64,000 nt of DNA from a virus (Duplodnaviria; Heunggongvirae; Uroviricota; Caudoviricetes), in the IMG/VR virus record IMGVR_UViG_3300047393_000041, positions 1 through 64,000 of that record, one strand, 5' to 3'. The notes beneath the pieces were generated by a model that did no database searches, was not told the origin of the DNA, and saw only the letters and a program-made list of their open reading frames with translations. The position numbers were made by a program, and so were the translations under genes. Of the stretch, positions 20,068 to 58,786 are shown one piece after another (the first letter of the stretch is position 1; every line of letters starts with the position of its first letter).

Positions 20068-20143
20068 CGATGTTGGATAGCTACCAAATGAACTTAGTGG
20101 TAACAACGGAAAACCTAAGAGAGATTAACAAAAACTCCGTACA

Positions 20144-28882: not shown

Positions 28883-30841
28883 ATGGAAGAAGTAATTATT
28901 TATGACATTGAAACCATGCAAGAATTGTTTGCTGTGGTAGTAATGATACCAGGTAAAGTTGGTAAAAGCTTTCAAGTGTCAAAATGGAAAAATCAATTAG
29001 ATGCTTTCGTTAGATACACAGAAGCTCACAGTGACGTTTATTGGGTAGGTTATAATAATCTACGCTTTGATAGTCAGGTAGTTGAGTGGATTCTTAGGAA
29101 TCATGAGAATTGGCATGAGTTAAGCAACTTGGAGATATGTGCTAAGATAGCACAGAAGGCTGCAGATGTTATACATGATGCTAATTATGATGTGTTTCCA
29201 GAATACAGAGAGCATGAGTTATCATTAAAACAATTAGATTTGTTTAAGATACATCATTACGATAATAAGAATCGTATGGTGAGTCTGAAGAGACTAGAGT
29301 TTGAGATGGATCTTGAGAATATTGAAGAGATGCCAATACATCATACTAAAACCAATATGACAAAACAAGAAGTTGAAATGACTATTGACTATTGTCATAA
29401 TGATGTTGATGCAACTTATGAATTCTACAAGATAACACTTGGTGACACAGAACATCCATTATACAGAGGAGACAACCGAATAGAACTGAGAAGAGATATC
29501 GAAGAAGAGTTTGGTATTCCATGTTTGAATTATTCAGACAGTAAAATTGGAGATGAGATGATTAAGAAGTTCTATTGCCAAGAAAAAGGTATTGAATATA
29601 GAGAACTTCCTAAGAAAGGATATTTCAGAAAGAGTATTGATGTAAAGAACTGTGTTGCAAAGTATGTGAAATTTGAAACTCCTCAACTTAAAGACTTCCT
29701 AAAGAAGATCAATAAGATGCAGTTGGGTCTTCAAGATGATTTCAAAGAAGATGTGCATTTCTATGGAAATGTGTATTCTTTTATGAAAGGTGGCCTTCAT
29801 ACAGAGAACAAACCTAAAGTGTTTGAAGCTGATGAAGAGTACGAGATAATCGATTGGGATGTTAGTTCTTATTATCCAGCTATTATTATCAACAATGGTA
29901 AGTTTCCTGCCCATTTAGGCAAGGAATTCCTTAGAGGGTATAAACAGATGTTTGATAAGAGATTGGAGCTTAAACCCTTCGCTAAGAAGGATAAGAAAAT
30001 TAAAGGAATTGTTGGAGCACTTAAGCTTGCAGTTAACTCTGTGTATGGTAAGTCATCTGATATGCAAAACTGGATATATGATAGGCAGTTAACTATGTTC
30101 ACCACAATTACAGGTGAGCTTAGTCTAATGATGCTTATTGAGAAATATGAAACCAGTGGCATACATGTGATCTCTGCAAATACAGATGGTGTAACTATCA
30201 AGATTAAGAAAGACTTAATTCCTTTGATGCATGACATCAATGCATGGTGGTGTGACATCACTCAATATGAGTTAGAGAGAACAGACTATTCCAAGATTAT
30301 CTTTAGTACAGTAAATGATTATTTAGCAATTATGACCAATGGAGAAATTAAAAAGAAAGGTGATTTTCTTACTGACTTCGAACTTCACAAAAACAAGTCT
30401 GCTAGAGTGGTTCCCATTGCTCTTGAGCGTTATTTTGTTCATGGGACTCCTGTGGCTGATACGATTATACATCATACTAATCTATATGATTTTTGCTTAA
30501 GGCAGAAAGCTAGTAGAAGTTTCCATTATGAAGGGACCAATAGATCAACAGGTGATGTTACTGTGTATGATAAGTTGATACGTTATTATGTATCAAATGA
30601 TGGTGATAAGATCTTTAAGATTAAGAATCCAGAGTGTCAGACTAGAGCTGCAGCAATCAGTCAAGTAGAAGCTGGTGAATGGGTATGTAAAGTTTGTAAC
30701 TTCTTACCCAAGAATAGTAAAGTTGATAATGTCAACTATGATTATTATATTGAGAAAGCCAACAGATTAGTCTTAAAGATTAACACTGAAGGTAGAAGAA
30801 TCAAAACAGTATTTATTCCTAACCAATTAAATCTTTTCTAA
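28883..30841 (+). CDS. DNA polymerase, family B (compact, with 3'-5' exonuclease domain)
   Basis: Exo I YDIET, Exo II YNNLRFD, Exo III YCHNDVDATYEFY. Pol motif A DWDVSSYYPAII (DxxSLYPS), motif B KLAVNSVYGKS (KxxxNSxYG), motif C-like SANTDGV. Confidence 0.8.
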   Translation: MEEVIIYDIETMQELFAVVVMIPGKVGKSFQVSKWKNQLDAFVRYTEAHSDVYWVGYNNLRFDSQVVEWILRNHENWHELSNLEICAKIAQKAADVIHDANYDVFPEYREHELSLKQLDLFKIHHYDNKNRMVSLKRLEFEMDLENIEEMPIHHTKTNMTKQEVEMTIDYCHNDVDATYEFYKITLGDTEHPLYRGDNRIELRRDIEEEFGIPCLNYSDSKIGDEMIKKFYCQEKGIEYRELPKKGYFRKSIDVKNCVAKYVKFETPQLKDFLKKINKMQLGLQDDFKEDVHFYGNVYSFMKGGLHTENKPKVFEADEEYEIIDWDVSSYYPAIIINNGKFPAHLGKEFLRGYKQMFDKRLELKPFAKKDKKIKGIVGALKLAVNSVYGKSSDMQNWIYDRQLTMFTTITGELSLMMLIEKYETSGIHVISANTDGVTIKIKKDLIPLMHDINAWWCDITQYELERTDYSKIIFSTVNDYLAIMTNGEIKKKGDFLTDFELHKNKSARVVPIALERYFVHGTPVADTIIHHTNLYDFCLRQKASRSFHYEGTNRSTGDVTVYDKLIRYYVSNDGDKIFKIKNPECQTRAAAISQVEAGEWVCKVCNFLPKNSKVDNVNYDYYIEKANRLVLKINTEGRRIKTVFIPNQLNLF

Positions 30842-32124: not shown

Positions 32125-32342
32125 TGACACCAAAAGAAAAAGCACAAGAAATAATTGAAAAATATATATATATTCAATCTGAACTTGAAGAGACAACTCA
32201 ATTTTATTTGAGTTATGCAGTAAAGTGTGCATTAATAGCAGTTAATGAGATATTAGATTTAGGATATGTTCCTAATGAAAAATCTACATTTAATGTATAT
32301 AAATTTTATTCAGAAGTTAAACTAGAAATAGAGCTATTATGA
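32124..32342 (+). CDS. hypothetical protein
   Basis: 72-aa ORF. Confidence 0.35.
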   Translation: MTPKEKAQEIIEKYIYIQSELEETTQFYLSYAVKCALIAVNEILDLGYVPNEKSTFNVYKFYSEVKLEIELL

Positions 32343-33406
32343 GTTTTGAACTATTAAATGCTGAAGTTGAGAAAGGAATGCATGATCTTAATAGAGGGAT
32401 TCCTATGGGATTTGATAGACTTACTAGATATGTAGGTATTCGTAAGGGTATGTACTATTTGATTGGTGGTAACACTGGATCTGGTAAGACATCATTTATT
32501 GATGATGCATTTGTTCTCAATCCTGTTGATTGGGCCATGTCTAAAGAAGGACTTGCATCAGGCATTAAGGTGAAGATATGGTATAGGTCCATGGAGAGAA
32601 GTAGAACTTACAAGTATGCCAAATGGGTATCTCGTAAGATATTTCTAGACCAGGGTATAATCATTCCAGTAGGTAAGTTACTTGGCTGGAGAGAGAAAAT
32701 GACTAAAGATGAACATGATCTGTTTTTATATTATAAAGATTATGTAGATCATCTTAGTGAAATAGTAACTATTATAGATGGTCCAGAGAATCCTGTAGGT
32801 ATAGCTAAAGAGTTAAAGACTTATGCTTTGAAGAATGGTGTGATAGAACAAATGGATGAATGGAATAAAATGTATGTTCCTGAAGATCCAAGTCAAATCA
32901 CCATGGTTGTACTTGATCACATTGGTCTACTTAAGACTACTAAAGATCAACCAACAAAGAAAGCAGCTATCGACAAAATGTCTGATGAACTCAGATATGC
33001 TAGAGATTTCTATGGATATTCTCCAGTGGTAGTAAGTCAGTTTAACAGAAGTATTTCTAATCCATCTAGGATTAAGAATGGTGATGTTGAACCTCAGCTT
33101 GAAGATTTTGCAGACAGTTCAGCTACACAAAATGATGCTGATGTTGTTATGGCATTATTTGATCCTATGAGATATAAAGTGGCAGATCCTTCTGGATATG
33201 ATCTTGATAAGCTAACAGATCAATATGGAGCTAAATACTTCAGAAGCTTGAGACTACTCAAGAATAGTTACGGAGAAGATGATGTCAGAATAGGTCTTGG
33301 ATTCCTTGGTGAAATTGGTATGTTTAAAGAATTACCAAGAAAGAAAGAAATTACAGATTCTGATTATGAATCAATTACAAACAAATCATATTTTTTAAGA
33401 GAATAA
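32339..33406 (+). CDS. DnaB-like replicative helicase (SF4, RecA-fold C-terminal domain)
   Basis: Walker A LIGGNTGSGKTSF, Walker B MVVLDHIGLL, H3 motif VVVSQFNRS (cf. DnaB SQLNR), H4 ADVVMALFDP. Confidence 0.6.
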   Translation: MSFELLNAEVEKGMHDLNRGIPMGFDRLTRYVGIRKGMYYLIGGNTGSGKTSFIDDAFVLNPVDWAMSKEGLASGIKVKIWYRSMERSRTYKYAKWVSRKIFLDQGIIIPVGKLLGWREKMTKDEHDLFLYYKDYVDHLSEIVTIIDGPENPVGIAKELKTYALKNGVIEQMDEWNKMYVPEDPSQITMVVLDHIGLLKTTKDQPTKKAAIDKMSDELRYARDFYGYSPVVVSQFNRSISNPSRIKNGDVEPQLEDFADSSATQNDADVVMALFDPMRYKVADPSGYDLDKLTDQYGAKYFRSLRLLKNSYGEDDVRIGLGFLGEIGMFKELPRKKEITDSDYESITNKSYFLRE

Positions 33407-33421
33407 TTAAAAACACAAATT

Positions 33422-34891
33422 ATGAATCCACTATTTTTAACAGATGGCTATAAAACAGCTCATCACATAATGTATCCAAAAGGAACTACATTAGTTTATT
33501 CAAACTTTACACCAAGAAGCAATAAATATGCTCCTAAAGGATGTGATAACTTAGTATCATTTGGACAACAGATGATGATGCAACAGATTCATGAAGCATT
33601 TCAAAAAGATTTCTTTAGTTTACCTAAAGATGAAGTTTGTCAAGAAATGAAAGAAGAATTAGAATTATATTTAGGAATGACTTATGATGTTAGTCATTTT
33701 GAAGCCTTACATGATATTGGATATCTGCCTATTTGTGTAAAGATAATTGAAGAAGGAACATTAGTTCCTATGAAGGTTCCTGTTCTTACAATATACAATA
33801 CACATCCAGACTTTTATTGGTTAACAAACTATTTAGAAACAATCATTTCAAATCTATTGTGGAAACCTATGACAAGTGCAACTATTGCACATACTTATAG
33901 AAAGGTGTTAACTAAATGGCAACAAAAAACTGATGCTGAAAAAGGTTGGTTTATTGATTGGCAAGGTCATGATTTCTCTATGAGAGGTATGGATAGTGTT
34001 GATGCTGTTATTAGTTCTGGTCTTGGACATCTTACATCTTTCATGGGAACAGATAGTCTTCCAACAATATATGGAGCACGTAAATACTATGCTGCAGAAG
34101 GACAAGTTGGAGGATCTGTACCAGCTACTGAACATTCAGTTATGTGTGCAGGAGGTAAAGAAGATGAAACAGAAACCTTTAGAAGACTTTTATCATTATA
34201 TCCAACAGGAATCTTATCAGTTGTTAGTGATACTTGGGACTTATGGAAAGTGTGTACAGAACATGTTGTAACACTCAAAGAAGAAATCTTAGCAAGAGAT
34301 GGTAAGTTGGTAATTAGACCTGATAGTGGAGATCCTGTTGATATTATTTGTGGTACAATGTTACCAAGTGATCCTGATTTTTTAGCTAGAAAAAATAGTC
34401 CTGAAGAAATAGGAGTAATTGAATTACTTTGGAATGTATTTGGTGGAACTATCAATGAACAAGGATACAAAGTATTAGATAGTCACATTGGGGCTATTTA
34501 TGGTGATTCAATTACTATTGATAGAGCTGATGAAATCTGTAGCAAGTTAGAAGCTAAAGGATTTGCAAGTACAAATATTGTTCTTGGTATTGGTTCTTTT
34601 ACTTATCAATACAACACTAGAGATACATTTGGTTTTGCAATGAAAGCTACTTATGTTGATGTAAATGGTGTAGGACAAGAAATCTTTAAAGATCCTATTA
34701 CTGATGATGGAATTAAAAAATCAGCTAAAGGATTATTGAGAGTGAATGCTGATCTTACATTATCAGATCAAGTGTCTTGGAAAGAACAAGAAGAAGAAGG
34801 AATACTGCAAGTTTTGTACAGAGATGGTGTATTTGAAAATTACACAAATTTTAAAACAATTAAAGAAAAATTAAATGAGTTACGAAATTAA
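33422..34891 (+). CDS. nadV: nicotinamide phosphoribosyltransferase family protein (Nampt/NadV-like; could equally be a Namat-type enzyme)
   Basis: N-terminus NPLFLTDGYKTAHHIMYPKGTT...YSNFTPR matches Nampt NILLATDSYKVTHY...YFECR. FMGTDSLPTIYGARKYY matches the Nampt GTDT region. Confidence 0.75.
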   Translation: MNPLFLTDGYKTAHHIMYPKGTTLVYSNFTPRSNKYAPKGCDNLVSFGQQMMMQQIHEAFQKDFFSLPKDEVCQEMKEELELYLGMTYDVSHFEALHDIGYLPICVKIIEEGTLVPMKVPVLTIYNTHPDFYWLTNYLETIISNLLWKPMTSATIAHTYRKVLTKWQQKTDAEKGWFIDWQGHDFSMRGMDSVDAVISSGLGHLTSFMGTDSLPTIYGARKYYAAEGQVGGSVPATEHSVMCAGGKEDETETFRRLLSLYPTGILSVVSDTWDLWKVCTEHVVTLKEEILARDGKLVIRPDSGDPVDIICGTMLPSDPDFLARKNSPEEIGVIELLWNVFGGTINEQGYKVLDSHIGAIYGDSITIDRADEICSKLEAKGFASTNIVLGIGSFTYQYNTRDTFGFAMKATYVDVNGVGQEIFKDPITDDGIKKSAKGLLRVNADLTLSDQVSWKEQEEEGILQVLYRDGVFENYTNFKTIKEKLNELRN

Positions 34892-35687
34892 TAAGTACCC
34901 TGATGGTACACAATATGTAAAAGTGCTTAAGTTTGAAAATGAGTTAGTAGTTGATATTAATTCATATCAAGATCTTTGGACATTAAATCAGATAAAAGAT
35001 ATATATGATCACAATCATAAAAAAGTTGGTCTGTTTATTCCTTGTTTGTTAGATGCTCAAGCAGATAAACGTTTTAACCCTGATGAAAGTTCAGGGTTGA
35101 AACTTGTATGTGAGTTTATAAACTCAATGAAGTTTACTTATGTAAAAGTGTGTCATCCTCATAATCCTGAAGTAGTAGAAGCATTGTTAGACAATTCAAT
35201 AATAATTGATAATAGTAATTTTATTGTAAAAGTTTTAGAAGATTTAAATTTAACTAATGGTGAACTCACTTTAATGTCTACTGATGCTGGAGGATTCAAA
35301 CCATTAATGAAACTTGCTGATAAATTACAATGGTCAGGAGAAGTTTATGGAGCATCTAAATCAAGAAAATATGAAGATGGTAAATCTAAATTAATTCAAG
35401 AAATAGATAGACAAGATTTTGGAGGTAAAGACATTCTTATCATAGATGATATTTGTGTGTATGGTGGAACATTTGTTGGTTTAGCTAATATGCTAAGAGA
35501 ACGTAATTGTGGAAAACTATATTTAGCAGTAAGTCATATGACTGTAGAAAGTCCAAATAAAGATTTATTCAAATTATTTGATAAAGTTTTCACCACATCT
35601 AGTAAGAACATTAGTTATCTAATAAAAAATGATGTACATGATACAATATTTGGAATTGTTCCAACTAATCTAATTATCATTAAATAA
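34875..35687 (+). CDS. ribose-phosphate pyrophosphokinase (Prs)-like phosphoribosyltransferase-fold protein
   Basis: LFIPCLLDAQADKRF...SGLKLVCEFI (cf. Prs IPYFGYARQDRK...SAKLVANLL). VCHPHNPEVV (cf. VDLHAEQIQ). PRPP-binding loop ILIIDDICVYGGTF (cf. VLVDDMIDTGGTL). 270 aa, shorter than canonical Prs. Confidence 0.65.
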   Translation: MSYEINKYPDGTQYVKVLKFENELVVDINSYQDLWTLNQIKDIYDHNHKKVGLFIPCLLDAQADKRFNPDESSGLKLVCEFINSMKFTYVKVCHPHNPEVVEALLDNSIIIDNSNFIVKVLEDLNLTNGELTLMSTDAGGFKPLMKLADKLQWSGEVYGASKSRKYEDGKSKLIQEIDRQDFGGKDILIIDDICVYGGTFVGLANMLRERNCGKLYLAVSHMTVESPNKDLFKLFDKVFTTSSKNISYLIKNDVHDTIFGIVPTNLIIIK

Positions 35688-35694
35688 AATAATT

Positions 35695-36201
35695 ATGACA
35701 ATACAAAGAAGAATAAAGAGATTCTTTAATAGGTTTGATTATATGAGAACATACAATTCTCCATTCAAACCATTAAGAATAAAATGGTATTTTGGCAAGG
35801 TGGCTATTGGTACACCATATTTCCTTCCAAGAAGATGGGTTGATAGTAAAATAAACCCAGGATACCTAACACCAGTTCCTAAGCAAATAGGATTTGATTT
35901 TGTATCATTAGGTTGGAAGACTAAATGGGATAGTTATAGACATGAATGGAATCCATTAGTGAGCTTTGTGTTCTTTAAATGGCAAGCAGCTGTAATGTTT
36001 GTTCCAGATCATGATTCACACTATTGGGAATGTTGGTTATACTACACTAGAGAAACAAATAAAAAGAATTCTGTAGAAGATAGAATAGCTCAATGTAGAA
36101 AGTTTGCTCCTTGTGAATGGACAAGACATACTGATGGAGTAACATCAGTGATAAATTATTATGATGTAATTTTAAAAGATAAGTATGTCAATAAGAGATG
36201 A
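35695..36201 (+). CDS. hypothetical protein
   Basis: 168-aa ORF, W/Y-rich. Confidence 0.4.
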   Translation: MTIQRRIKRFFNRFDYMRTYNSPFKPLRIKWYFGKVAIGTPYFLPRRWVDSKINPGYLTPVPKQIGFDFVSLGWKTKWDSYRHEWNPLVSFVFFKWQAAVMFVPDHDSHYWECWLYYTRETNKKNSVEDRIAQCRKFAPCEWTRHTDGVTSVINYYDVILKDKYVNKR

Positions 36202-37288
36202 GAGGCAATTAGAATTTGCTAAAGTGTGGTTAAAAGAGAAGCATGGTATATTGAATTTGTGTCCAAGGTTTGGAAAGATTAGAACTAGTATTAATATACT
36301 AAAAGAATTACCTAAATCACTTAGTTACACTCATGTAACAGTTTCTCCTTCAGTGTTAATTGCTTACCCAGATAATAAGATTAAAGAATCTTGGCAAGCT
36401 GATTTTAATGATCTTGGGTATGATGATAGTAATGTCACATACAGCACACATCTATCATTAAAAAAGTTAGTAGACAATGAGTATGATATTATTATTATAG
36501 ATGAGATACATCTTTTGTCTGAAGCTCAGATAGAAGTGTGTAAGGATCTACTTAGTAACAATGCTTGTATACTAGGTCTCACTGGTACATTATCCAGAGA
36601 AACAGAAATAACTCTTGAGGAAGAACTTGATTTACATGTTATAGCTCACTATCCAATTGAAAAAGCAATTGAAGAAGGAGTTATTGTAGATTATGAGATA
36701 CATGTAATAAGAGTACCACTAGATAATACTGTATATAATGATTACAAAGGAAAGCTCAAGACTGAGAAGAAACACTATGATGGTATATCATGGGTAATCA
36801 ATAAAATGCAATATAGTGGTGGAGATACAATGTTTATGCGTCTAGCAAGAATGCGAGTTATTCAATCATCTTTGGCCAAAACTAATGCTACAAAAAAGCT
36901 GTTAGCTGCACATAAAGATGAGAGAATCTTAGTATTCTGTGGAACCACTGCTGTAGCAGATAATCTAGGTATTCCTTCCTATCATAATAAGTCTAAAGAA
37001 AAAGAAATCTTTGAAGACTTTGCTGAAGGTAAAGGTAATCATCTAGCTGTTGTAAAGATTGGTAATACAGGAGTGACGTATAAACCTCTTGATCGAGTAA
37101 TAATAAACTATTTCGATAGTAATGCAGAGAACTTAGCTCAGAAAATTAACAGATGTATGGCTATGGAATATAACACTCCAGATAAGAAAGCACATGTATA
37201 TATAGTGAGTAGTAATGAACCTGTAGAGCTGAAATGGTTATCAAAGGCATTAGAATTCTTTGATAAAAGCAAGATAAAATATGTATAA
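36185..37288 (+). CDS. SF2 helicase (DEIH-box)
   Basis: Motif I-like CPRFGKIRT, motif II IIIIDEIHLL, motif III LGLTGTLSRE, C-terminal RecA-like domain with VFCGTTAVAD. Confidence 0.5.
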   Translation: MSIRDERQLEFAKVWLKEKHGILNLCPRFGKIRTSINILKELPKSLSYTHVTVSPSVLIAYPDNKIKESWQADFNDLGYDDSNVTYSTHLSLKKLVDNEYDIIIIDEIHLLSEAQIEVCKDLLSNNACILGLTGTLSRETEITLEEELDLHVIAHYPIEKAIEEGVIVDYEIHVIRVPLDNTVYNDYKGKLKTEKKHYDGISWVINKMQYSGGDTMFMRLARMRVIQSSLAKTNATKKLLAAHKDERILVFCGTTAVADNLGIPSYHNKSKEKEIFEDFAEGKGNHLAVVKIGNTGVTYKPLDRVIINYFDSNAENLAQKINRCMAMEYNTPDKKAHVYIVSSNEPVELKWLSKALEFFDKSKIKYV

Positions 37289-37348
37289 TTAAAATAATTA
37301 TTCGTATCTTTATATAGTGAAAATAACTAATTAAATAAATTAAAAACT

Positions 37349-38023
37349 ATGAGTTCAAAGCTAGTAGGAATTGTGGGTGCAACAGGTACAGGAAAAAGTA
37401 CAGCGATTAAGCACCTAAATCCAGAGGAAACGTACATTATTAATGTTGCAAAGAAGGAGCTTCCATTTAGAGGAAGTGAAAAGCTTTACAACACAGAGAA
37501 CAAGAATTACAAGGAAATTGAAGATGCAAATGAAATATCTCGTTTATTGAGAACTATTTCTGATAAAGCTCCTCACATCAAGAACATTATTATTGAAGAC
37601 AGTAATTACATTATGGGATTCAATATGGTTAACAAAGCTACAGAGGTAGGATTTACAAAATTTAGTGTTATGGCTAAAGACATGGTTGATCTATTCAGAA
37701 CAGCTAGACAGTTGAGAGATGATGTCACTGTATTCTATCTTACACATCCAGAAGAAATAATGGATGGTCAAGATGTTATAGGATATAAGATCAAAACTGC
37801 AGGTAAGTTAATTGATAACCAAGTTCTTTTAGAAGGATTGTTAACTGTATGTTTATATACAATCGTAGAAGAAAATAAAGATGGAACAGCTAATTATCAA
37901 TTTGTAACTAATCGTTACAGAAAGATACCAGCAAAGAGTCCTGATGGAATGTTCCAAGAAATTAAAATACCAAATGATCTGCAAATAGTTGCAGACAGTT
38001 TAACTAATTATTATAATGCCTAA
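37349..38023 (+). CDS. P-loop ATPase (RecA-core-only; Sak4/AAA_24-like candidate)
   Basis: N-terminal Walker A LVGIVGATGTGKSTAIK, Walker B IIIEDSNYIMG. 224 aa. Located in replication/recombination module. Confidence 0.4.
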   Translation: MSSKLVGIVGATGTGKSTAIKHLNPEETYIINVAKKELPFRGSEKLYNTENKNYKEIEDANEISRLLRTISDKAPHIKNIIIEDSNYIMGFNMVNKATEVGFTKFSVMAKDMVDLFRTARQLRDDVTVFYLTHPEEIMDGQDVIGYKIKTAGKLIDNQVLLEGLLTVCLYTIVEENKDGTANYQFVTNRYRKIPAKSPDGMFQEIKIPNDLQIVADSLTNYYNA

Positions 38024-38942: not shown

Positions 38943-38977
38943 AGACCTCTATCAGAAATGGTAGAGGTTTTTTATTT
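38943..38977 (+). terminator. rho-independent terminator
   Basis: AGACCTCTA-tcagaaatgg-TAGAGGT followed by TTTTTTATTTT. The ORF-track start of the next gene (38958) lies in its loop. Confidence 0.55.
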
Positions 38978-38984
38978 TAAAGCT

Positions 38985-39989
38985 ATGATACAAGGAAAAA
39001 AGAAAACAAACTTAACACCTGATAGCATATTAGACAAGATAACAGAGTTTGATATCTATAAGTTCTATATGCCACATCAGAATTGGAAAATAAATGTTGT
39101 TACTTATTCACCTTTCAGAAATGAAAAGAGTCCTTCATTCATTATAGGATATAAAGGAAAAGCATTAACATTTCATGATTTCTCAGATTCTACCAAAAGA
39201 GGTGGATGTTTTGATTTTGTGATAATGCTATTTAACCTACCATCCTTACGTGAAGCATTAGTAATGATTGATAGAGATTTTGATCTAGGAATTGTTAATG
39301 TATCCTCTACAAAGAATTATGAAAGGATTGTTTCTGATTATGCTCAACCAGCTGCCACTTCCAAACGTGAATTCTTTATTCAAGTGAAAATAAGAAAGTT
39401 TACGCATGAGGAATTAGCATATTGGAATGGATATTATCAAGACATAGATGATCTTAAAGCTAATAATGTATACTCGATAGACACTGTATATCTAAACAAA
39501 AAGAAGTTCCCTATAATGGACTCAGAATTAAGATTTGGTTATCTATATGAAGGACATTGGAAGATTTATAGACCATTTGCAGATAGAAAGAATAAGTGGA
39601 TGCCTAATAATGTACCTATTACCATGATGGATGGATTAGCTGACATCAAAGATTGTGATGTAGCATTCATTAATAAGAGTAAGAAGGATTACATGGTAAT
39701 GAAAAAGATTTACCCATGTTGTTGTGCTGTTCAGAATGAAGGATCAGGATGTTTCTCTGAAGAAAATGTTGAGTATCTAAAAGAAAACTCTGATAGGCAA
39801 ATCTTGTCCTTTGATTCAGATGAAGCTGGTGTAAAGAATTCTCAAATAATAACTGATAAGTTTGGATTTGAATATTGTAATGTACCAAGGCTCTATCTAG
39901 GAGAAGGAATTAAAGATTGGGCTGATCTTGCCAAAACACATGGATTAAAAGTTATAGAAGAATATTTAATAAAAAAAGAAATTATATGA
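38985..39989 (+). CDS. DnaG-type primase (TOPRIM domain)
   Basis: TOPRIM signature VAFINKSKKDYMVM...ILSFDSDEAGVKNS (E...DxDxxG). Start placed at ATG 38985 downstream of terminator. Confidence 0.5.
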   Translation: MIQGKKKTNLTPDSILDKITEFDIYKFYMPHQNWKINVVTYSPFRNEKSPSFIIGYKGKALTFHDFSDSTKRGGCFDFVIMLFNLPSLREALVMIDRDFDLGIVNVSSTKNYERIVSDYAQPAATSKREFFIQVKIRKFTHEELAYWNGYYQDIDDLKANNVYSIDTVYLNKKKFPIMDSELRFGYLYEGHWKIYRPFADRKNKWMPNNVPITMMDGLADIKDCDVAFINKSKKDYMVMKKIYPCCCAVQNEGSGCFSEENVEYLKENSDRQILSFDSDEAGVKNSQIITDKFGFEYCNVPRLYLGEGIKDWADLAKTHGLKVIEEYLIKKEII

Positions 39990-40989: not shown

Positions 40990-41160
40990 ATGAAAAGAGA
41001 AGATGAGATAGTAATTTTAATTGAACACTTAAAAGAAGAAGTTATAAGAACTTCACAAAAATATAGTTCATTATTATCAGATACAATCATAAACAACGGT
41101 AAACTTATAGAAGCTTATATGATAGAGTTAGAACAAATTAAAACACAAAAAGGAGTATGA
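40990..41160 (+). CDS. hypothetical small protein (56 aa; unlisted)
   Basis: Hand-translated MKREDEIVILIEHLKEEVIRTSQKYSSLLSDTIINNGKLIEAYMIELEQIKTQKGV. ATGA overlap with next gene. Preceded by duplicated 23-mer. Confidence 0.3.
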   Translation: MKREDEIVILIEHLKEEVIRTSQKYSSLLSDTIINNGKLIEAYMIELEQIKTQKGV

Positions 41161-41348
41161 AAGCAACAAGTCACGAATGGATGGTAGTAAAAGACGAACA
41201 GTTAGAACTACTAGAAGAAGAAATTAAAGAAAACATTGAATGGTTATCAACTATAGATGATGATGACATAGAATGTATAGGAATAGAGAACTTAGAAGCT
41301 ATTCTAACGAGATTCTTTCATAGAACTATAACATTAACACAAAGATAA
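41157..41348 (+). CDS. hypothetical acidic protein
   Basis: 63-aa ORF. Confidence 0.35.
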   Translation: MKATSHEWMVVKDEQLELLEEEIKENIEWLSTIDDDDIECIGIENLEAILTRFFHRTITLTQR

Positions 41349-41349
41349 T

Positions 41350-42069
41350 ATGGATTGGAGTAAGTTTTCTTCAAGTTTTCACCCATCATGGCATGCTAAA
41401 ATGCGTCCATTTATAGAGAGTGAACAATGTGATAAGATTTATGCATTTCTAAAATCAGAGAGCAAGAGGGGCAAACGAGTTGCTCCTCTCTCTATGCATG
41501 TTTGGAGATGTTTTAAAGAAACCTCATTGGATGACCTAAAAGTTGTAATGGTTGGTATGGCACCATATCATACACTTAAGAATGATGCTCCTGTTGCAGA
41601 TGGATTACTTATGGGATGTTCTATTACAGAACAATTACAACCATCATTGGAACAATATTATGGTGCTGTTGAGAGAGATCTATATGATGGATTAAACTTA
41701 AGCATTATAAAAGATCCAGACGTAAGCTATTTAGCAAACCAGGGAGTGTTAATGTTCAACGCATCTCTAACTGTAGAGATTAACAAAGCAGGAAGCCATT
41801 TAGATATATGGGAACCATTTGTTAAATATCTATTTGAAGAGATTATTAATCATTTAGGTGTACCAATACTATTTCTTGGTAAGGATGCAGCTAAGTATAA
41901 AAAGTATACAGGAATCTTTACACATGTATTTGAAATCAGTCACCCAGCTTCAGCAGCTTATAAACATACTGAATGGGATACTGAAGGAGTGTTTAGTAAA
42001 TTAGATGTATTATTATTAGAAAGTAACGGATTTGGTATTCAATGGATACCTATAGATGTACCTTTTTGA
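41350..42069 (+). CDS. uracil-DNA glycosylase (family 1 UNG) homolog with substituted catalytic motif
   Basis: VVMVGMAPYH aligns to UNG VVILGQDPYH (Q-D replaced by M-A). ADGLLMGCS ~ AHGLAFSV. LANQGVLMFNASLTV ~ WARQGVLLLNTVLTV. ISHPASAAY ~ APHPSPLSA. Confidence 0.7.
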   Translation: MDWSKFSSSFHPSWHAKMRPFIESEQCDKIYAFLKSESKRGKRVAPLSMHVWRCFKETSLDDLKVVMVGMAPYHTLKNDAPVADGLLMGCSITEQLQPSLEQYYGAVERDLYDGLNLSIIKDPDVSYLANQGVLMFNASLTVEINKAGSHLDIWEPFVKYLFEEIINHLGVPILFLGKDAAKYKKYTGIFTHVFEISHPASAAYKHTEWDTEGVFSKLDVLLLESNGFGIQWIPIDVPF

Positions 42070-42267: not shown

Positions 42268-42600
42268 ATGGAAAATCAAATTATTAAAATAGAAGACCTT
42301 GAAGTAGGAGATGAGATATTAATATCTTGTCAATCCTATTTTAAATATCTTAGAGTATTAGTGAAACCATCACTTAGTAAAACAAAAAAACATTGGAGAA
42401 CAGCACATCCTTTATATGGAAATGTTAGATGTTCCACAAGACAAGATCAAGTGATTACTTATTCATATACTGATAGTGCAGGAGTAGTTCATAATAGAAT
42501 ACAAAAAACTTGGATAACAACATCAGAAGATCATAATATAAAAGTTTCACAAGATCTTGACGGAAGACAAATTTGGTTAATAAAAAGAACAACAATTTAA
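42268..42600 (+). CDS. hypothetical protein
   Basis: 110-aa ORF with AAAACAATTAAAATTATGG start context. Confidence 0.4.
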   Translation: MENQIIKIEDLEVGDEILISCQSYFKYLRVLVKPSLSKTKKHWRTAHPLYGNVRCSTRQDQVITYSYTDSAGVVHNRIQKTWITTSEDHNIKVSQDLDGRQIWLIKRTTI

Positions 42601-42611
42601 AACTAGAAAAA

Positions 42612-44912
42612 ATGATATTAGAAAAGCAAACAGAAGCAAACGTCCTAATCGAGGGACAATCACAAGAAACAATTGGTATGTCACTAGACTTAGATTCTGC
42701 ACAAATTTTGATGCAGATGTTAAGTAAGAATTTATATTCTGATGATATAGGCTCTGCTGTCAGAGAATGTGCAAGTAATGCACTTGATAGCCATAGAAGA
42801 GCTGGAGTGGACACACCAATTGTAGTTTCATTTAAAGCATCTACACAGAACAATTATGAATTTTGTGTAGAAGATTTTGGTATTGGTTTAGATGCTGATG
42901 ATGTACGTAACATTATTAGTAAGTATGGTAAATCTACTAAAAGAAATAGTGCTACAGAATTAGGAATGATGGGCTTAGGTTTTAAAGCCCCTTTAGCATA
43001 TTCTAGTAGTTTCTACTTTGTATGTAGAAAAGATGGTATGGAGCGTAAGTATATGATGTATGAAGGAGAAGATACTAACACTATCGATCTTTTATATGAA
43101 AAAGAGACAGAAGAGCATAATGGTGTAAAGATTATTATTCCTGTTAAGTACTCAGACAAGTATCAGTTCATGAAGAAGATCAAAGAACAATTGTGTTATT
43201 TTGAAAGTGTATATTTTGATGTACCAGAGGATTCTTCTATTGTTAATGATTTTGTTATCAGTAGACATGAACATTTTCAATTTTCTGAATTATCTACAGA
43301 AAGAAATTTACACTTATGTTTAGACAATGTGTATTATCCTCTTGATTTTGGAAAAATGGGAATACGTACAATTGATTTTCCTTTAGCTCTTAGATTCTCT
43401 TTGAGTGATGGATTGTTTCCAACACCAAATAGAGAGAGTATTAGATATACACCAGAGGCCAAGAAGATTATCACTGATAAACTAGCTCAAGTAGCAAACT
43501 ATCTTGTCACTAAGTATAATGATAACATTGCTGAAGGAAATGACATCAAGTCTGTGATCAATCATATTGAGAAAAGTGGATATTATGTAGAGATGGCTAG
43601 TGGATTTACAAGAAACATTGAACCATTTGTTCAGTTTTCTACTATAACACCACAAGTTCCTAAAATTGAAGGAGTTAAGTTATTAGATTTTCCAAAATTG
43701 TATAACTCATATAGACAAAACATGTTAGTTGAAGCATTTCCTGCTAAGTTCTATGTAAACAATAGAAGAATACAGAATGTAGACAAACATTATGTATATG
43801 GATACAACTTGCAAAGTGTGTGTGATGGATCAGCTAAAATATATGTGTATCATGATAAACTTGCTGGTATTAAGAAAGATTATCTAAGAGCTATATGTGA
43901 CCAACATGGACGCACATTCTTAGTTAAACCAGCTCCTCCTATGACATTAGGTGTTGCTGCTAAGTATAGACTTGATACATATTATCATCTTTTACAATTG
44001 AATAAGGTTCCAAAAGCAAAATGGAGAACTGTAATCAAAGAATATCAACATATCATGTCTTTGGTTGAAGCAAATTTCATCAATCTTGATGATCTTGAGG
44101 TGCCACAAGACTTTATTGATTCTAAAAAGAAAGCAAAAGTTGCTAAAGCTTCAATATCAGGTGGTAAAAGATTGAAACTTCAAGGAGAGATAGTATGTAA
44201 ATTAGGCGTACCTTTAGCTAGGTATAATGGTGGTAAAAATTGTAAGTTTGATTCACAATTATACAAGTTAGAAGATCTTCACAAAGCAAAACATTTAAAA
44301 GTGTATGCTAAACATGAAGATGCTTATAAACTTGATGCTCTTTATGGAATGATGATTGGTAAACAAAAGATGGAAGTCATCACATTCTCTGATAGAGAGT
44401 TGAAAATAGTTGAACAATTAGAAATTCACAATTTAATATCTTATGACAAATTTATGGAAGGTAAAACTGCACCATTTAAAAGAATGGTTACATCAATATT
44501 GATTTACAACATGATGTCAAAGAATTCATCAATCTTTAACAAAGTTGATACTCTTGAGTATGTATCTACTGATTTAGCTACAAAATTAAAAGTATTGGCT
44601 AAGTATAGACGTACTAACTATGTTCAACAAGATGAATCATTAAGTAAATCTATGTTAGCAGTAGCAGAGAAACACAATTTGTTTGATCAAGACATCTATC
44701 CAGAGTATTTACAAATGAAAGAAATATTTGAAAAACTTTCATTCTTAGAACCTGTGTGTGCCAGATTATCATATACACATGATAAAGATCCGATGATTAA
44801 TGTGATGACTGATTTGTTCAAGTATTACAAACATAGAGTGAATTTAAGTCATTATAACATCAGAATTAATGATGAGATATTAACAGAAGAATCAATAGAA
44901 GCATTAGTATAA
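42612..44912 (+). CDS. Hsp90/HtpG-like GHKL-superfamily ATPase
   Basis: N-box region AQILMQMLSKNLYSDDIGSAVRECASNALDS (cf. HtpG [28 protein letters not shown]). G1 FCVEDFGIGLDADDV (cf. ISDNGVGMTRDEV). Lid SKYGKSTKR (cf. IAKSGTK). G2 GMMGLGFKAPLAYSSS (cf. GQFGVGFYSAF). No TOPRIM or MutL transducer motif seen. Start at ATG 42612. Confidence 0.55.
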   Translation: MILEKQTEANVLIEGQSQETIGMSLDLDSAQILMQMLSKNLYSDDIGSAVRECASNALDSHRRAGVDTPIVVSFKASTQNNYEFCVEDFGIGLDADDVRNIISKYGKSTKRNSATELGMMGLGFKAPLAYSSSFYFVCRKDGMERKYMMYEGEDTNTIDLLYEKETEEHNGVKIIIPVKYSDKYQFMKKIKEQLCYFESVYFDVPEDSSIVNDFVISRHEHFQFSELSTERNLHLCLDNVYYPLDFGKMGIRTIDFPLALRFSLSDGLFPTPNRESIRYTPEAKKIITDKLAQVANYLVTKYNDNIAEGNDIKSVINHIEKSGYYVEMASGFTRNIEPFVQFSTITPQVPKIEGVKLLDFPKLYNSYRQNMLVEAFPAKFYVNNRRIQNVDKHYVYGYNLQSVCDGSAKIYVYHDKLAGIKKDYLRAICDQHGRTFLVKPAPPMTLGVAAKYRLDTYYHLLQLNKVPKAKWRTVIKEYQHIMSLVEANFINLDDLEVPQDFIDSKKKAKVAKASISGGKRLKLQGEIVCKLGVPLARYNGGKNCKFDSQLYKLEDLHKAKHLKVYAKHEDAYKLDALYGMMIGKQKMEVITFSDRELKIVEQLEIHNLISYDKFMEGKTAPFKRMVTSILIYNMMSKNSSIFNKVDTLEYVSTDLATKLKVLAKYRRTNYVQQDESLSKSMLAVAEKHNLFDQDIYPEYLQMKEIFEKLSFLEPVCARLSYTHDKDPMINVMTDLFKYYKHRVNLSHYNIRINDEILTEESIEALV

Positions 44913-44918
44913 ATTAAC

Positions 44919-44946
44919 AGAGGGACATCAATGTCCCTCTCTTTTA
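44919..44946 (+). terminator. rho-independent terminator
   Basis: AGAGGGACA-tcaa-TGTCCCTCT followed by CTTTT. Confidence 0.5.
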
Positions 44947-44974
44947 ACAATTAACAATTAAATAAATAAATAAG

Positions 44975-46498
44975 ATGAGTAGTAAATTTTTATCGTTAGA
45001 CTGGTTCAAAGAAACAGCAGAGAATGCAATTGGTAAAGTGGTGGCTAATAAGTTAGAGAGCTTGATGGAACAAGAAGTTCCTGTAGAATGTCAAACTCAT
45101 GCTAAAATTAAGCCTTACATGACAATGAAGTTGGTTAATGATACACTCACCGTGGTGTTGAGGAATGGTGATGTATTAAGTAAACCTGCAGCAACAGAAG
45201 AAGATTTCTATGCTGTAAGTAATGCTACAGATGAGCATGAGATAGATGTAATTATGTCTTCTCGTGAGGTGATGGCTGATTTAGAAGCAATTAGACAAGA
45301 AGCGGTTAGAATTCAAACATTGCAAAAAGGTATTGAGTTACTTGGTGCACTTCCTGATTTCACTGTAGAAGGTAACACTGTGTATTTAAAAGGTACATCT
45401 AGAAGTCTTCCTCCATTATTAGTAGAAAGATTTATCATAGTTGTAAATGATGTAAAATATTATACAGAATTTGGAGATGTTCAAGAAGCTCTTAACCAAA
45501 ATGATGATTACGTAGCATTGAAAAACTTCTTCATGTGGTGTTGTTTAAACCCAAGAGCTGAAGTGGCACATGAGCTATACAGATTCTTAGAAGAGAATAG
45601 CTTTAGAATCACTAAACAAGGATTTGTTGTAGCTTTAAGAAATGTTGTAACACTTCATGGATCTCCAGAACTAGTTCACTTTGTAAGTAACTCTTATAAT
45701 AAAGTGAAAGCTGTATGGAAAAAGAATCCAGATAATTACATTGTATTCTTACAAGATGGTGAGTATAAACTTGTAGATAAAGGTCATTTAACAAAGATTG
45801 AAACACACACATCTACAACATGTCCAGATTGTGATGGTGAAGGTTATGATGATTGGAATGATGATGATGAATGGGAAGATTGTTATGAGTGTGATGGTAC
45901 AGGAGAAGTAGAAGAATATGAATACACTGTAGAAGTTCCAATAGACCATGGTCAAAAGATTGGTGGATTAACAGAATTGTATTTAGATCTTCCTAATAGA
46001 GAAGAGAATAGATTCACTGATGACTGGACCAAAACATTTGATATTCGTATTGGACAAGTTACAAGTATGCCACAAGAAGATTGTAACTGGAGTACACAAG
46101 ATTGTGCTGCTGCAGGATTACACTTTACTTCTGATCAAATTCACTATGTAGGATGTGGAGATCAATCAGTAATTGTTCTTATTAATCCTATGAAGGTAGT
46201 AGGTATTGGTAAACATAAAGGTAGATGTTTTGAATATCTTCCAATCATGACTGTTCCAAGAGATGAAGCTACTAGAATATTACATGATGGTGAGTTTGAC
46301 ACATTACAATTAGATGAAGATTATGCTATTCGTGAATTAGAATCTCTTTTAGAGAAAGCTAAAGAAGGATTTGCTACAGAGTCTAAGAAATATGAATTTA
46401 ACATGCCAGCTATTTCAGCTAGAGAAATCAATACAATTGTATTGAATCTAAGTGAAATGAAAGCTAAGATTACTAATCGTGTAACTACGATTAAGTAA
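44975..46498 (+). CDS. zinc-finger protein with DnaJ-type CxxCxGxG repeats
   Basis: 507 aa. Central CPDCDGEGYDDWNDDDEWEDCYECDGTGE gives two CxxCxGxG motifs like the DnaJ cysteine-rich domain. Rest unrecognised. Confidence 0.45.
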   Translation: MSSKFLSLDWFKETAENAIGKVVANKLESLMEQEVPVECQTHAKIKPYMTMKLVNDTLTVVLRNGDVLSKPAATEEDFYAVSNATDEHEIDVIMSSREVMADLEAIRQEAVRIQTLQKGIELLGALPDFTVEGNTVYLKGTSRSLPPLLVERFIIVVNDVKYYTEFGDVQEALNQNDDYVALKNFFMWCCLNPRAEVAHELYRFLEENSFRITKQGFVVALRNVVTLHGSPELVHFVSNSYNKVKAVWKKNPDNYIVFLQDGEYKLVDKGHLTKIETHTSTTCPDCDGEGYDDWNDDDEWEDCYECDGTGEVEEYEYTVEVPIDHGQKIGGLTELYLDLPNREENRFTDDWTKTFDIRIGQVTSMPQEDCNWSTQDCAAAGLHFTSDQIHYVGCGDQSVIVLINPMKVVGIGKHKGRCFEYLPIMTVPRDEATRILHDGEFDTLQLDEDYAIRELESLLEKAKEGFATESKKYEFNMPAISAREINTIVLNLSEMKAKITNRVTTIK

Positions 46499-56824: not shown

Positions 56825-57108
56825 TGGCAAAATTATTAGGAAACCGTATCTATTTAGAGATACCAAAGAAAGAAGAAAGCAAACTTATTGTAGATGATAA
56901 TACAAAAGAAGCTTTAGAGAAAGAAATGATTAAGAAAATGTCTAAATTAGTTGTACACAGTGTAGGAACAGCTAATATGGAAGTTAAACCAGGAGATGTA
57001 GTTCTTATAGATCCAGCAGCATTATCAAAAGCTCCATTAATCCCTTTGTCAGATGATGAAACAGTATTACTAGTTTCTCCATTTGACATTATCATGATAT
57101 GGGATTAG
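56824..57108 (+). CDS. GroES-like co-chaperonin (Hsp10 / T4 gp31 analogue)
   Basis: LLGNRIYLEI...SKLVVHSVG...VKPGDVVLI...DETVLLVSPFDIIMIWD aligns with GroES PLHDRVIVK...GEVLAVG...VKVGDIVIF...EEVLIMSESDILAIVE. Confidence 0.6.
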   Translation: MAKLLGNRIYLEIPKKEESKLIVDDNTKEALEKEMIKKMSKLVVHSVGTANMEVKPGDVVLIDPAALSKAPLIPLSDDETVLLVSPFDIIMIWD

Positions 57109-58112
57109 ATAAAACATCAAATAATATATTTTTCTACTGGGATGGTCATATTCATCCTAGTAGATTAGATATATTAAAGGATTGCATTTATTCTACAAGA
57201 GTAATGAATCCATCTCGTCCAATATATTTAGTAACAAATAGTTTAACGTCTGACATATTTGATTCTAAGTTTAATATTCAAATATATAATTGGGATATTT
57301 CAATATTGTTAGATACACCTTTCCCAAAAGATAAATTAAAGTATTACATAAACCCTGATTCTACTATAATTTGTAATCCTAGAGAATTGTCTGATTTAAT
57401 GAGAATTTGTTTATTATTTAAATTCGGAGGATCATATATTGATACAGATGATCTTGCAATTAAACCAATATGTGATACATTAAATCTTATCTGCAGATCT
57501 TATGATCCACATACTTGTCATTATAACGATATTACTCCTGAAGAATGTATACCTGGTGTACATAGAGAAATAAAAGGATATGATGACATTAACTTCTTTC
57601 CTAGAAATGATTGTTGGTTAAACTTTGAACCTAATAGTCCATTTATTTATAGTATATTATCAAATGAAAAATTAAAAACATCAGAAGGTGCTATTTATAT
57701 TGGAGATAACTTTTCATGGCAATCTTTAACATTAGATGCATGTATAGAACATATAAGTAAAATTGGTAATTTATATAATGTAGGACTAACTCTTTTATAT
57801 CTATATGAAGATTTTGTAGCTGCATCATCATATTGGGATAGATGTGACTATGGTGGAGAAATGTGTGATTTATGGAAAGAAATGGAAGGAGTTGAAACTA
57901 CTGAATGGGGATTTTATAGATGTAATAAATCAACAGCTATTGAATATTTTGAAAAAGTTAAATCAACATATCCATTTTTATCTCATTTATGGTTACATGA
58001 TAAAGACATGAATAAAGATTGGTTATTGCCAGAATTAACAGAAGAACACTATCAAGTATCTACTTGGATATATAATGAAATAAAAAACGAAATAAAAAAA
58101 TATAAAAAATGA
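57099..58112 (+). CDS. glycosyltransferase, GT32-like (DXD sugar-binding region)
   Basis: SDLMRICLLFKFGGSYIDTDDLAI matches the GT32/Gly_transf_sug consensus (R/K-x-D-hhRhxhL...GGhYhDxD). Confidence 0.55.
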   Translation: MGLDKTSNNIFFYWDGHIHPSRLDILKDCIYSTRVMNPSRPIYLVTNSLTSDIFDSKFNIQIYNWDISILLDTPFPKDKLKYYINPDSTIICNPRELSDLMRICLLFKFGGSYIDTDDLAIKPICDTLNLICRSYDPHTCHYNDITPEECIPGVHREIKGYDDINFFPRNDCWLNFEPNSPFIYSILSNEKLKTSEGAIYIGDNFSWQSLTLDACIEHISKIGNLYNVGLTLLYLYEDFVAASSYWDRCDYGGEMCDLWKEMEGVETTEWGFYRCNKSTAIEYFEKVKSTYPFLSHLWLHDKDMNKDWLLPELTEEHYQVSTWIYNEIKNEIKKYKK

Positions 58113-58786
58113 TTTCAGTTTTAACACTTACATACAAAAGACATCATTTGCTTGAAGAAGCAATTCAATCATTTATATCACAAGAACTCACACCAGAATG
58201 TGAAATGGTTATAATTAATGATAATCCAGATGTAAAATATATCTATAATCACCCTAGAGTAAGGATTATCAATTGTGAAACTAGATTTCCTTCTATATCA
58301 GCTAAACTTGAATGGGGATATAAACAATGTAATTATCCATACATATATAGATTAGATGATGATGATTTACTTGCTCCATGGGCACTAAAAAATGCACAGA
58401 TTGACATAGAGATTAATCCTGGTTATGAAATCTACAGAAGTGAAGGAATGTATTTCTTTGTTAATAATATATGTGAGGGAGAAAATTCTAATATTAACAA
58501 TGGTAATATATATACTAAAGCTTATTTAGATAGAATAATATTTCCAAAAACTAGTTTTGGAGAAGATTCAGATATTACATTTTCTAATGATGCATCTATA
58601 TATGAATCAAAGTTAAAACATACAATGATATATAGATGGGGAATGGATACATTCCATGTTTCAGGTTTAGGAAATACTGAGAATCAAGTTATATTAGATC
58701 ATGCAGATAGAGTGTTAGATGATACAAAAGGAAATATTATTCTTCATCCACATTTTAATAATGATTATTATAGTCAATTGAAATAA
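58109..58786 (+). CDS. glycosyltransferase family 2-like (GT-A fold)
   Basis: N-terminus MISVLTLTYKRHHLLEEAIQSFISQ...MVIINDNP resembles GT2 IIPTYNR...AI.S...Q. DxD-like YRLDDDDLLAP. Confidence 0.5.
   Translation: MISVLTLTYKRHHLLEEAIQSFISQELTPECEMVIINDNPDVKYIYNHPRVRIINCETRFPSISAKLEWGYKQCNYPYIYRLDDDDLLAPWALKNAQIDIEINPGYEIYRSEGMYFFVNNICEGENSNINNGNIYTKAYLDRIIFPKTSFGEDSDITFSNDASIYESKLKHTMIYRWGMDTFHVSGLGNTENQVILDHADRVLDDTKGNIILHPHFNNDYYSQLK

Follow-up and report, generated by a model that had tools for sequence, protein, structure and literature searches.

Family-1 uracil-DNA glycosylases (UDG), such as E. coli Ung and human UNG2, are textbook enzymes with near-invariant catalytic residues. In viruses, a UDG gene was merely listed among those of crAss-like phages by Yutin et al. 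(2021), and the poxvirus protein D4 has an essential role in replication that is independent of its catalytic activity (PMC1936997, PMC2630940). UDG of families 4, 5 and 6 naturally lack the motif-1 Asp. Most of the catalysis in families 4 and 5 is carried by the motif-2 His, which is worth a factor of 1e3–1e4 in family 4, where enzymes with Gly or Ala at the Asp position excise uracil at ~0.1 s-1 and exclude thymine by Glu47 rather than by a Tyr (PMC5387724). A full-text literature search found no paper describing phage family-1 UDG that lack the Asp. The stretch of DNA analyzed here (the window) is 64 kb of the ~115 kb genome of a tailed phage (IMG/VR record IMGVR_UViG_3300047393_000041, positions 1 to 64,000), roughly half of the genome lying outside it. 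It carries a gene for a UDG-like protein in which the water-activating Asp of motif 1 has been replaced by Ala, a loss that is fixed and under selection in the lineage to which the gene belongs.

A family-1 UDG-like protein with an altered active site

The gene and its conserved blocks are located as follows:

41350–42069, plus strand: UNG-like gene (family-1 UDG fold) lacking the water-activating Asp; ATG start, 239 aa; recognized by Pfam, NCBIfam, PHROG, PDB and fold searches
41554–41571, plus strand: motif 1, GMAPYH (aa 69–74), in place of GQDPYH; Ala71 codon GCA at 41560–41562, Met70 for Gln, and Pro72, Tyr73 and His74 kept
41596–41622, plus strand: ADGLLMGCS block (aa 83–91); by alignment, Met88 stands where E. 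coli has the uracil-stacking Phe77
41737–41775, plus strand: uracil-specificity block NQGVLMFNASLTV (aa 130–142); Asn137 (codon 41758–41760) corresponds to E. coli Asn123
41941–41961, plus strand: motif 2, HPASAAY (aa 198–204); the catalytic His198 is kept and Leu191 is replaced by Ala202

An earlier note on this DNA, made from the sequence alone, had picked out these four blocks and proposed homology to family-1 UNG. All four are present in the open reading frame (ORF), and the homology was upheld by the Pfam, NCBIfam and PDB searches. The ORF matches Pfam UDG (PF03167) with an E value of 2e-7, above the gathering cut-off, and five NCBIfam UNG equivalog models with E values of 1e-19 to 1e-29. 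PHROG 12143 ('unknown function') matches it end to end (E = 3.7e-29; aa 10–232 against profile positions 6–227 of 227). In the PDB, 57 distinct UNG sequences, from E. coli, human, herpesvirus and other family-1 enzymes, match aa 9–232 (best E ~3e-15), and HMMER sets their GQDPYH motif directly on GMAPYH. An AlphaFold2 (AF2) model, predicted from a shallow alignment of 72–98% identical sequences, was of moderate quality (predicted local distance difference test, pLDDT, 64; predicted TM score, pTM, 0.67), and the predicted fold returned family-1 UNG for all of its top 50 Foldseek matches, at TM ~0.6. Judged by sequence, the relationship to family-1 UNG is far beyond chance, and on homology the protein is placed as a divergent member of family 1. 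The scores of the ORF nevertheless lie under all of the NCBIfam equivalog cut-offs (TIGR00628 and NF003588-92), reaching 68–104 bits against 143–237.

When aligned to the UNG of E. coli and human and read against the motif definitions of PMC1936997 (Table 4), the protein shows the following correspondences (E. coli residue first, window's protein second):

Asp64: Ala71
Gln63: Met70
Tyr66 (thymine exclusion): Tyr73, retained
Phe77 (uracil stacking): Met88
Asn123 (LLLN): Asn137 (LMFN), retained
His187 (HPSPLS): His198, retained, as is the following Pro199
Leu191 (intercalating, Leu loop): Ala202
Pro-rich loop AIPPS: QLQPS, with Pro98-Ser99 kept
Gly-Ser loop GS: GK, with Gly177 kept and Ser166 replaced by Lys178

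The replacements of Gln by Met and of Asp by Ala in motif 1, and the presence of the motif-2 His, are thus as first described. Three changes go beyond that description, namely Phe77 to Met88, Leu191 to Ala202 and Ser166 to Lys178. The position equivalent to Phe77 is a mixture of Phe, Met and Leu across family representatives, and at the position equivalent to Leu191 Ala is the commonest residue in every family group, those retaining the Asp included; Tyr204 of HPASAAY is a possible candidate for the wedge residue. There is also a four-residue insertion after motif 1 relative to canonical UNG, and E. coli His73 corresponds to Asp84, an Asp being found there family-wide. With three of six canonical active-site residues unmatched and every equivalog threshold missed, the protein should not be classed with the orthodox UNG.

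Compared with E. coli Ung and human UNG2, the protein has the same fold, collinear motifs, equivalents of Pro65, Tyr66, Asn123 and His187, and the Pro-Ser of the Pro-rich loop, but differs in having Met-Ala for Gln63-Asp64, Met for Phe77, Lys for Ser166 and HPASAAY for HPSPLSA. Its nearest cultured relatives, at 26–34% identity, are the UDG of Crassvirales and Flavobacterium phages (crAss001 gp74, DAC15, FpV4 and others). These proteins share a similar gene position downstream of a primase, an Asp in place of E. coli His73 and the family-wide HPA..(Y/R) form of motif 2, but they keep the motif-1 Asp, as GQDPY[P/C]. With the more distant IMG/VR loci included, the motif is GQDPY[P/H/C] throughout (cultured relatives crAss001, DAC15, cr111, cr116, cr128, IAS virus and FpV4). 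The only degenerate cultured relative is g042 of the crAss-like Cellulophaga phage phi14:2, in which motif 1 is GKEPYR (Asp to Glu) and motif 2 is EDPIQA, the catalytic His being replaced by Asp. This gene (L002, 5980–6690), annotated as 'uracil-DNA glycosylase', lies directly 3' of genes for an amidoligase, an aminotransferase, a COOH-NH2 ligase and a gamma-glutamyl cyclotransferase.

More distant comparisons are also informative. Poxvirus D4/E4, a processivity-factor subunit, is likewise a viral UDG similar to family 1, and its loops are divergent (GIDPYP, HPAARDR; PMC1936997). In biological setting the window's protein, encoded among replication genes, resembles it, whereas D4 retains Asp68 and His181 and is without the Pro-rich and Gly-Ser loops. 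Its sequence similarity to the window's protein is marginal (E 0.007–0.1). The likeness to families 4 (UDGa) and 5 (UDGb) is confined to active-site logic, that is, a small residue at the motif-1 Asp position combined with the motif-2 His (Ala71 and His198 here). Motif 1 of family 5 is GLAPA, close to the G[L/M]AP of the window's protein and its relatives. By sequence the protein falls outside these families, all NCBIfam and PDB matches being to family 1, and a phmmer query with Tth UDGa found nothing in the window. The engineered human UNG (hUNG) D145N/H268N sensor is, like the phage protein, a family-1 scaffold without the Asp, and it binds uracil-DNA specifically and as tightly as the wild type (PMC4756853), but the His that it has lost is kept in the natural protein.

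Replacement of the motif-1 aspartate under purifying selection

A large protein collection contained 1255 homologs of the UDG-like protein at E<=1e-5. Among the 120 closest clusters, which show 72–98% identity to the window's protein, motif 1 is GLCPYH (49), GMCPYH (40), GMAPYH (26), GMSPYH (4) or GFCPYH (1), so that the Asp site holds Cys in 90, Ala in 26, Ser in four and Asp in none. The orthologous coding sequences (CDS) are intact in 55 of 55 cases, comprising the window's gene and IMG/VR relatives with 61–97% amino-acid identity. Pairwise dN/dS values (Nei-Gojobori) have a median of 0.14 (interquartile range 0.12–0.18, maximum 0.33), with a range of 0.10–0.24 inside the Ala-type subclade that holds the window's gene, and dS reaches saturation, which indicates that the orthologs are not one recent clonal lineage. 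An alignment of 57 sequences that includes Ala-type members has 88 invariant columns, among them Tyr73, His74, Asn137, His198 and Pro199. The gene is under purifying selection, and the loss of the Asp is fixed and selected in this lineage. A decaying pseudogene, or a neutral remnant with no selected function, might be suggested by the missing catalytic residue and by scores below all equivalog cut-offs, but can hardly be reconciled with the intact CDS, the low dN/dS, the invariant pocket residues and the conserved synteny, and was rejected.

The ancestral codon at the Asp site of the lineage encodes Cys (TGT/TGC). Ala (GCA/GCC/GCT), two nucleotide changes away from the Cys codons, arose at least twice, and parsimony places three Ala/Cys changes in all. 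Since Cys, Ala and Ser interchange at position 71, no specific side chain beyond one of small size is needed there, and, on the evidence of these alignments, the Asp side chain is dispensable in the lineage of the window's protein.

An exhaustive phmmer search of 1.84 billion cluster representatives gave 5170 matches (126 at E<=1e-30), of which the best 150 were aligned with the window's protein and E. coli Ung; 134 of these are full-length. At the Asp site the 134 carry D (60), S (20), C (19), E (14), G (6), A (4), N (3), K (3), P (2) and L, V or T (one each). The 43 Cys/Ser/Ala-type representatives keep Pro72 (43/43), Tyr73 (41/43), Asn137 (42/43) and His198 (40/43), as well as Trp154 and Gly177 (both 43/43), and the rest of their pocket is as well preserved as in Asp-type members. 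Where the site holds some other residue (G, N, K, P etc.), the His is lost more often, being kept in only 7 of 17 representatives; from their sequences these look like true degenerates, and the Cys/Ser/Ala group does not.

Replacement of the Asp appears to have recurred within the family. On a crude neighbor-joining (NJ) tree of 135 sequences, for which the motif was masked and E. coli Ung served as the root, at least 18 switches between Asp and non-Asp, and 44 state changes in all, are required at this site by parsimony. The corresponding numbers are 3 for Tyr66, 4 for Pro65, 6 for Asn123 and 15 for His187, with 61 for the median column. By an independent route, 26 of the 135 sequences have a nearest neighbor with the opposite Asp state, in agreement with the tree on repeated switching. 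The neighboring residues change as well: the residue before the site is Gln in 38/60 sequences of the Asp type but in only 3/44 of the Cys/Ser/Ala type, and the Tyr is followed by His in 28/44 Cys/Ser/Ala-type but 5/60 Asp-type sequences, where Pro is usual (Fisher p ~1e-9 for each association, uncorrected for phylogeny). Gln-Asp is thus replaced as a unit by [L/M/Y][C/S/A], which fits the correlated 'QD doublet' described by Xia et al., who found that the two residues co-evolve and linked them to the positioning of the His (PMC5387724).

The family, known mainly through sequences from phages and metagenomes, offers many independent natural replacements of the UNG water-activating Asp, in which the uracil pocket and catalytic His have stayed under purifying selection, and amounts to a ready-made evolutionary experiment on the shares of leaving-group stabilization and water activation in the catalytic power of UNG. 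Public annotation of its members is 'uracil-DNA glycosylase', a label that may be wrong or misleading for about half of the 134 nearest cluster representatives; the names of cluster members give this term alone, with no hint of habitat or host.

Three representatives carry N-terminal fusions (NADAR, GIY-YIG and DegV). In P0131, a metagenomic protein of 385 aa, an Asp-less UDG-like domain (GLSPYH) follows a NADAR domain (PF08719, E = 1e-14; weakly similar to T4 gp30.3); this arrangement may have been produced by gene calling. The GIY-YIG and DegV fusions resemble, respectively, a homing endonuclease and a chimera, and all three, being single cases, were dropped as evidence of function.

Uracil excision or uracil binding

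The reading we favor, if tentatively, is that of an attenuated, His-driven (SN1-like) uracil glycosylase that stays long on its site and acts beside the replisome. The Gln-Asp doublet of motif 1 has given way to a hydrophobic-plus-small doublet (Met-Ala here, Met/Leu-Cys in the closest relatives). Kept under purifying selection are the fold, the uracil-discriminating Tyr73 and Asn137, the leaving-group-stabilizing His198, and Pro98-Ser99 and Gly177 of the DNA-contact framework. Uracil would be flipped out of the DNA into a uracil-specific pocket, and the glycosidic bond would be cleaved slowly by a dissociative, His-driven route without a general base, following the logic of UDG families 4 and 5 (motif 1 GE[A/G]PG). 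Turnover would probably be orders of magnitude under that of canonical UNG, with long residence on uracil or abasic (AP) DNA, and the gene context suggests that this action takes place alongside the phage replisome. The conserved pocket suggests that uracil in DNA is still engaged by the protein. A slow or non-cutting uracil binder may benefit a phage through replisome coupling, fewer self-inflicted abasic sites in an AT-rich genome, or resistance to Ugi-type inhibitors.

The protein had been proposed to be glycosylase-dead or mechanistically altered. Alteration is borne out by the dN/dS of ~0.14, the 55 intact CDS and the absence of Asp from all 120 closest clusters, but death of the enzyme is not established, given that families 4–6 naturally lack the Asp and families 4 and 5 are active nonetheless, that hUNG D145N retains 0.04% of activity, and that the His is kept in 40 of 43 Asp-less representatives. 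The same mutant bears on the statement that a change of Asp to Asn costs UNG about four orders of magnitude, which had the direction right and the size slightly high, 0.04% being a ~2,500-fold loss (PMC1919486, Table 1). Residual activities from the same paper are 0.32% for hUNG H268L and 3–7% for SMUG1 N85A; in scaffolds of families 1 and 3, some activity thus outlasts the loss of the water-positioning residue. As the D145N/H268N sensor demonstrates, the His is not needed for binding to uracil-DNA, and its retention in the Asp-less representatives therefore argues for residual catalysis. Taken together, the precedent of families 4–6, the residual activity of mutants and the retention of the His favor slow cutting over none.

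Several observations weigh against slow excision. A search of the representative alignment for an acidic or polar residue that might compensate in the Asp-less group alone found none: Asp84 is family-wide, and the extra loop at aa 75–82 is not conserved among the representatives. Together with the loss of the Asp, the changes of Phe77 to Met, Leu191 to Ala and Ser166 to Lys could abolish catalysis. Ala, which cannot even position a water molecule, is tolerated at the site, and this fits equally well a protein whose chemistry no longer matters. A structural role could account for the retained His, the family tree is a crude NJ tree, and the AF2 model is only moderate (pLDDT 64).

In the main rival reading, possible but in our view doubtful, the protein is a non-catalytic, uracil- or DNA-binding replisome accessory, acting as a scanning or processivity subunit or as a uracil sensor on the phage polymerase or primase. 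The Asp was lost at least 18 times across the family (on the crude NJ tree), Ala is tolerated in its place, and the positions of Phe77, Leu191 and Ser166 are changed too. The gene sits in a replication module downstream of the primase both here and in crAss001, phi14:2 and FpV4. There are precedents elsewhere: vaccinia D4 has such a part together with A20 and E9, and the virus depends for its replication on this protein though not on the catalytic site (PMC2630940), UDG domains in phages and poxviruses scan template DNA before the polymerase reaches it (bioRxiv 10.1101/2025.03.26.645540), and UNG mutated at the Asp and His binds uracil-DNA tightly (PMC4756853). A role like that of D4, suggested in the earlier note, is on this comparison plausible. 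However, the His is far better kept than the Asp (15 versus 44 changes; 40/43) although it is dispensable for binding, D4 itself retains Asp68 and His181 (PMC1936997), and no A20-like adaptor was identified.

A protective or dominant-negative binder, which would shield AT-rich phage DNA from host Ung and AP endonucleases by occupying uracil or AP sites, and which could counter dUTP-raising defences, is unlikely. It would explain why a uracil-specific pocket has been kept while fast chemistry was removed, and the GC content of the genome (29–35%) would suit it, as would the lack of any dUTPase, Ugi or p56 homolog in the 64-kb window by a low-sensitivity search. The altered Leu loop probably also makes the protein insensitive to Ugi-type inhibitors. 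Against this, stoichiometric shielding would be costly, ThyX and a deoxynucleoside monophosphate (dNMP) kinase argue for a normal dTTP supply, a dUTPase may lie in the approximately one half of the ~115-kb genome outside the window, and the retention of the His is left unexplained. The shield for uracil-containing DNA that had been put forward as a candidate role is thus possible but unsupported, the ThyX and dNMP kinase genes pointing to ordinary thymine DNA.

Altered chemistry or an altered substrate, either as a glycosylase or reader of a non-uracil base or as a Cys/Ser nucleophile forming a UdgX-like covalent DNA–protein adduct, appears quite improbable. Cys or Ser stands at the Asp site in 39 of the 134 representatives and 94 of the 120 close clusters, so that Cys-type members might form covalent adducts, and P0131 is fused to NADAR, a family named by Pfam for NAD and ADP-ribose. 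But the fusions are single cases and perhaps artefacts of gene calling, and the window's protein has Ala, which arose repeatedly from Cys under purifying selection, so a nucleophilic role cannot be essential. Tyr73, which excludes thymine and 5-substituents, and Asn137, which distinguishes uracil from cytosine, are nearly invariant and are the best-conserved residues of a pocket that stays uracil-shaped. For this reason the recognizer of a modified base, another role suggested at the outset, is disfavored.

Slow, His-driven excision remains our preferred reading. The Asp-less proteins may be natural non-hydrolytic uracil/AP-site readers that ride with the replisome, as natural equivalents of the D145N/H268N sensor and of poxvirus D4 in which catalysis has truly been given up. 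Alternatively, their family-1 scaffold may have arrived by convergence at the mechanism of families 4 and 5, which relies on the His and dispenses with the Asp. Either way the [L/M/Y][C/S/A]PYH subgroup would represent a new functional class within family 1, an idea we regard as possible rather than probable. If it is true, the fastest DNA glycosylase known has been turned by phages, more than once, to a different use. The protein is an altered member of a well-known superfamily in which catalytic plasticity is already documented, and it would still surprise a UDG enzymologist.

Genomic setting

Related metagenomic contigs are 110–119 kb in length. Genes for the portal protein and large terminase are on the minus strand of the window, and the terminase is nearest to that of Leptolyngbya phage Lbo-JY46 (40%), followed by Cellulophaga phages phi17:2 and phi4:1 (31%) and crAss-like phages (~27%). 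Megablast of 36–48 kb found no DNA-level relative among GenBank phages, and there is no close cultured relative. Close relatives were also absent from 185k bacterial and archaeal species genomes, which thus gave no prophage or host clue. The UDG-like gene is co-oriented with the primase, helicase, polymerase and recombination genes around it:

28883–30841, plus strand: phage DNA polymerase (PHROG 1252, E = 2e-139), a candidate interaction partner
32339–38023, plus strand: rest of the replication module, with DnaB-type helicase (32339–33406), NAMPT, phosphoribosyl pyrophosphate (PRPP)-transferase-like protein, SNF2-type helicase and Sak4-like annealing protein
38958–39989, plus strand: Toprim/DnaG-type primase, with the UDG-like gene downstream
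41157–41348, plus strand: conserved acidic ORF of 63 aa, isoelectric point 4.3, its stop codon ending 1 nt before the ATG of the UDG-like gene

The polymerase, called family B in the earlier note, had no sequence match in Pfam or the PDB, and homologs from GenBank phages carry conflicting annotations (family B, Pol II, exonuclease or hypothetical protein). Past the UDG-like gene, the plus-strand module continues with rIIA- and rIIB-like genes, an exonuclease, RecA, dNMP kinase, ThyX, PhoH and two glycosyltransferases. A relative (L003) has its genes in the same order in this neighborhood of the UDG-like gene, and in FpV4, one of the three phages named above with the UDG gene downstream of the primase, it overlaps the toprim gene by 4 nt. 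Single-sequence phmmer searches of six-frame ORFs in the window, a method of low sensitivity, found only the UDG-like ORF itself and no second UDG of family 1 or 4, as well as none of the dUTPase, Ugi and p56 homologs already mentioned.

A homolog of the acidic 63-aa ORF occurs upstream of the UDG-like gene in 45 of 60 related loci, directly adjacent in ~16 and with inserted genes between them in the others. Neither this ORF nor the small flanking ORFs had a PHROG or Pfam match; its product is possibly a partner protein or a protein of the DNA-mimic type.

Other features of the window include genes for a NAMPT-like nicotinamide phosphoribosyltransferase and a phosphoribosyltransferase-domain protein (33422–35687, plus strand), which lie between the DnaB-type and SNF2-type helicase genes and may form an NAD-salvage pair. 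The rIIA-like (GHKL ATPase) and rIIB-like genes (42573–46498, plus strand) are directly 3' of the UDG-like gene; in L003 (11097–14561) a LAGLIDADG homing-endonuclease gene interrupts rIIA, and the helicase genes have GIY-YIG genes inserted between them. Beyond PhoH and ThyX, the plus-strand module ends in two adjacent glycosyltransferase genes (57099–58786, plus strand), one a DXD-motif Gly_transf_sug and the other a GT2 type. Positions 15256–17945 (plus strand) hold the gene for a MoxR-type AAA+ ATPase (bpMoxR/AAA_5), followed by an overlapping ORF of 471 aa without a family match. A full-length tmRNA gene is present at 19666–20070 (plus strand), with a tag peptide predicted by ARAGORN and a match to all 374 positions of Rfam RF00023 (model 1–374) at 81.4 bits, against a gathering threshold of 47.

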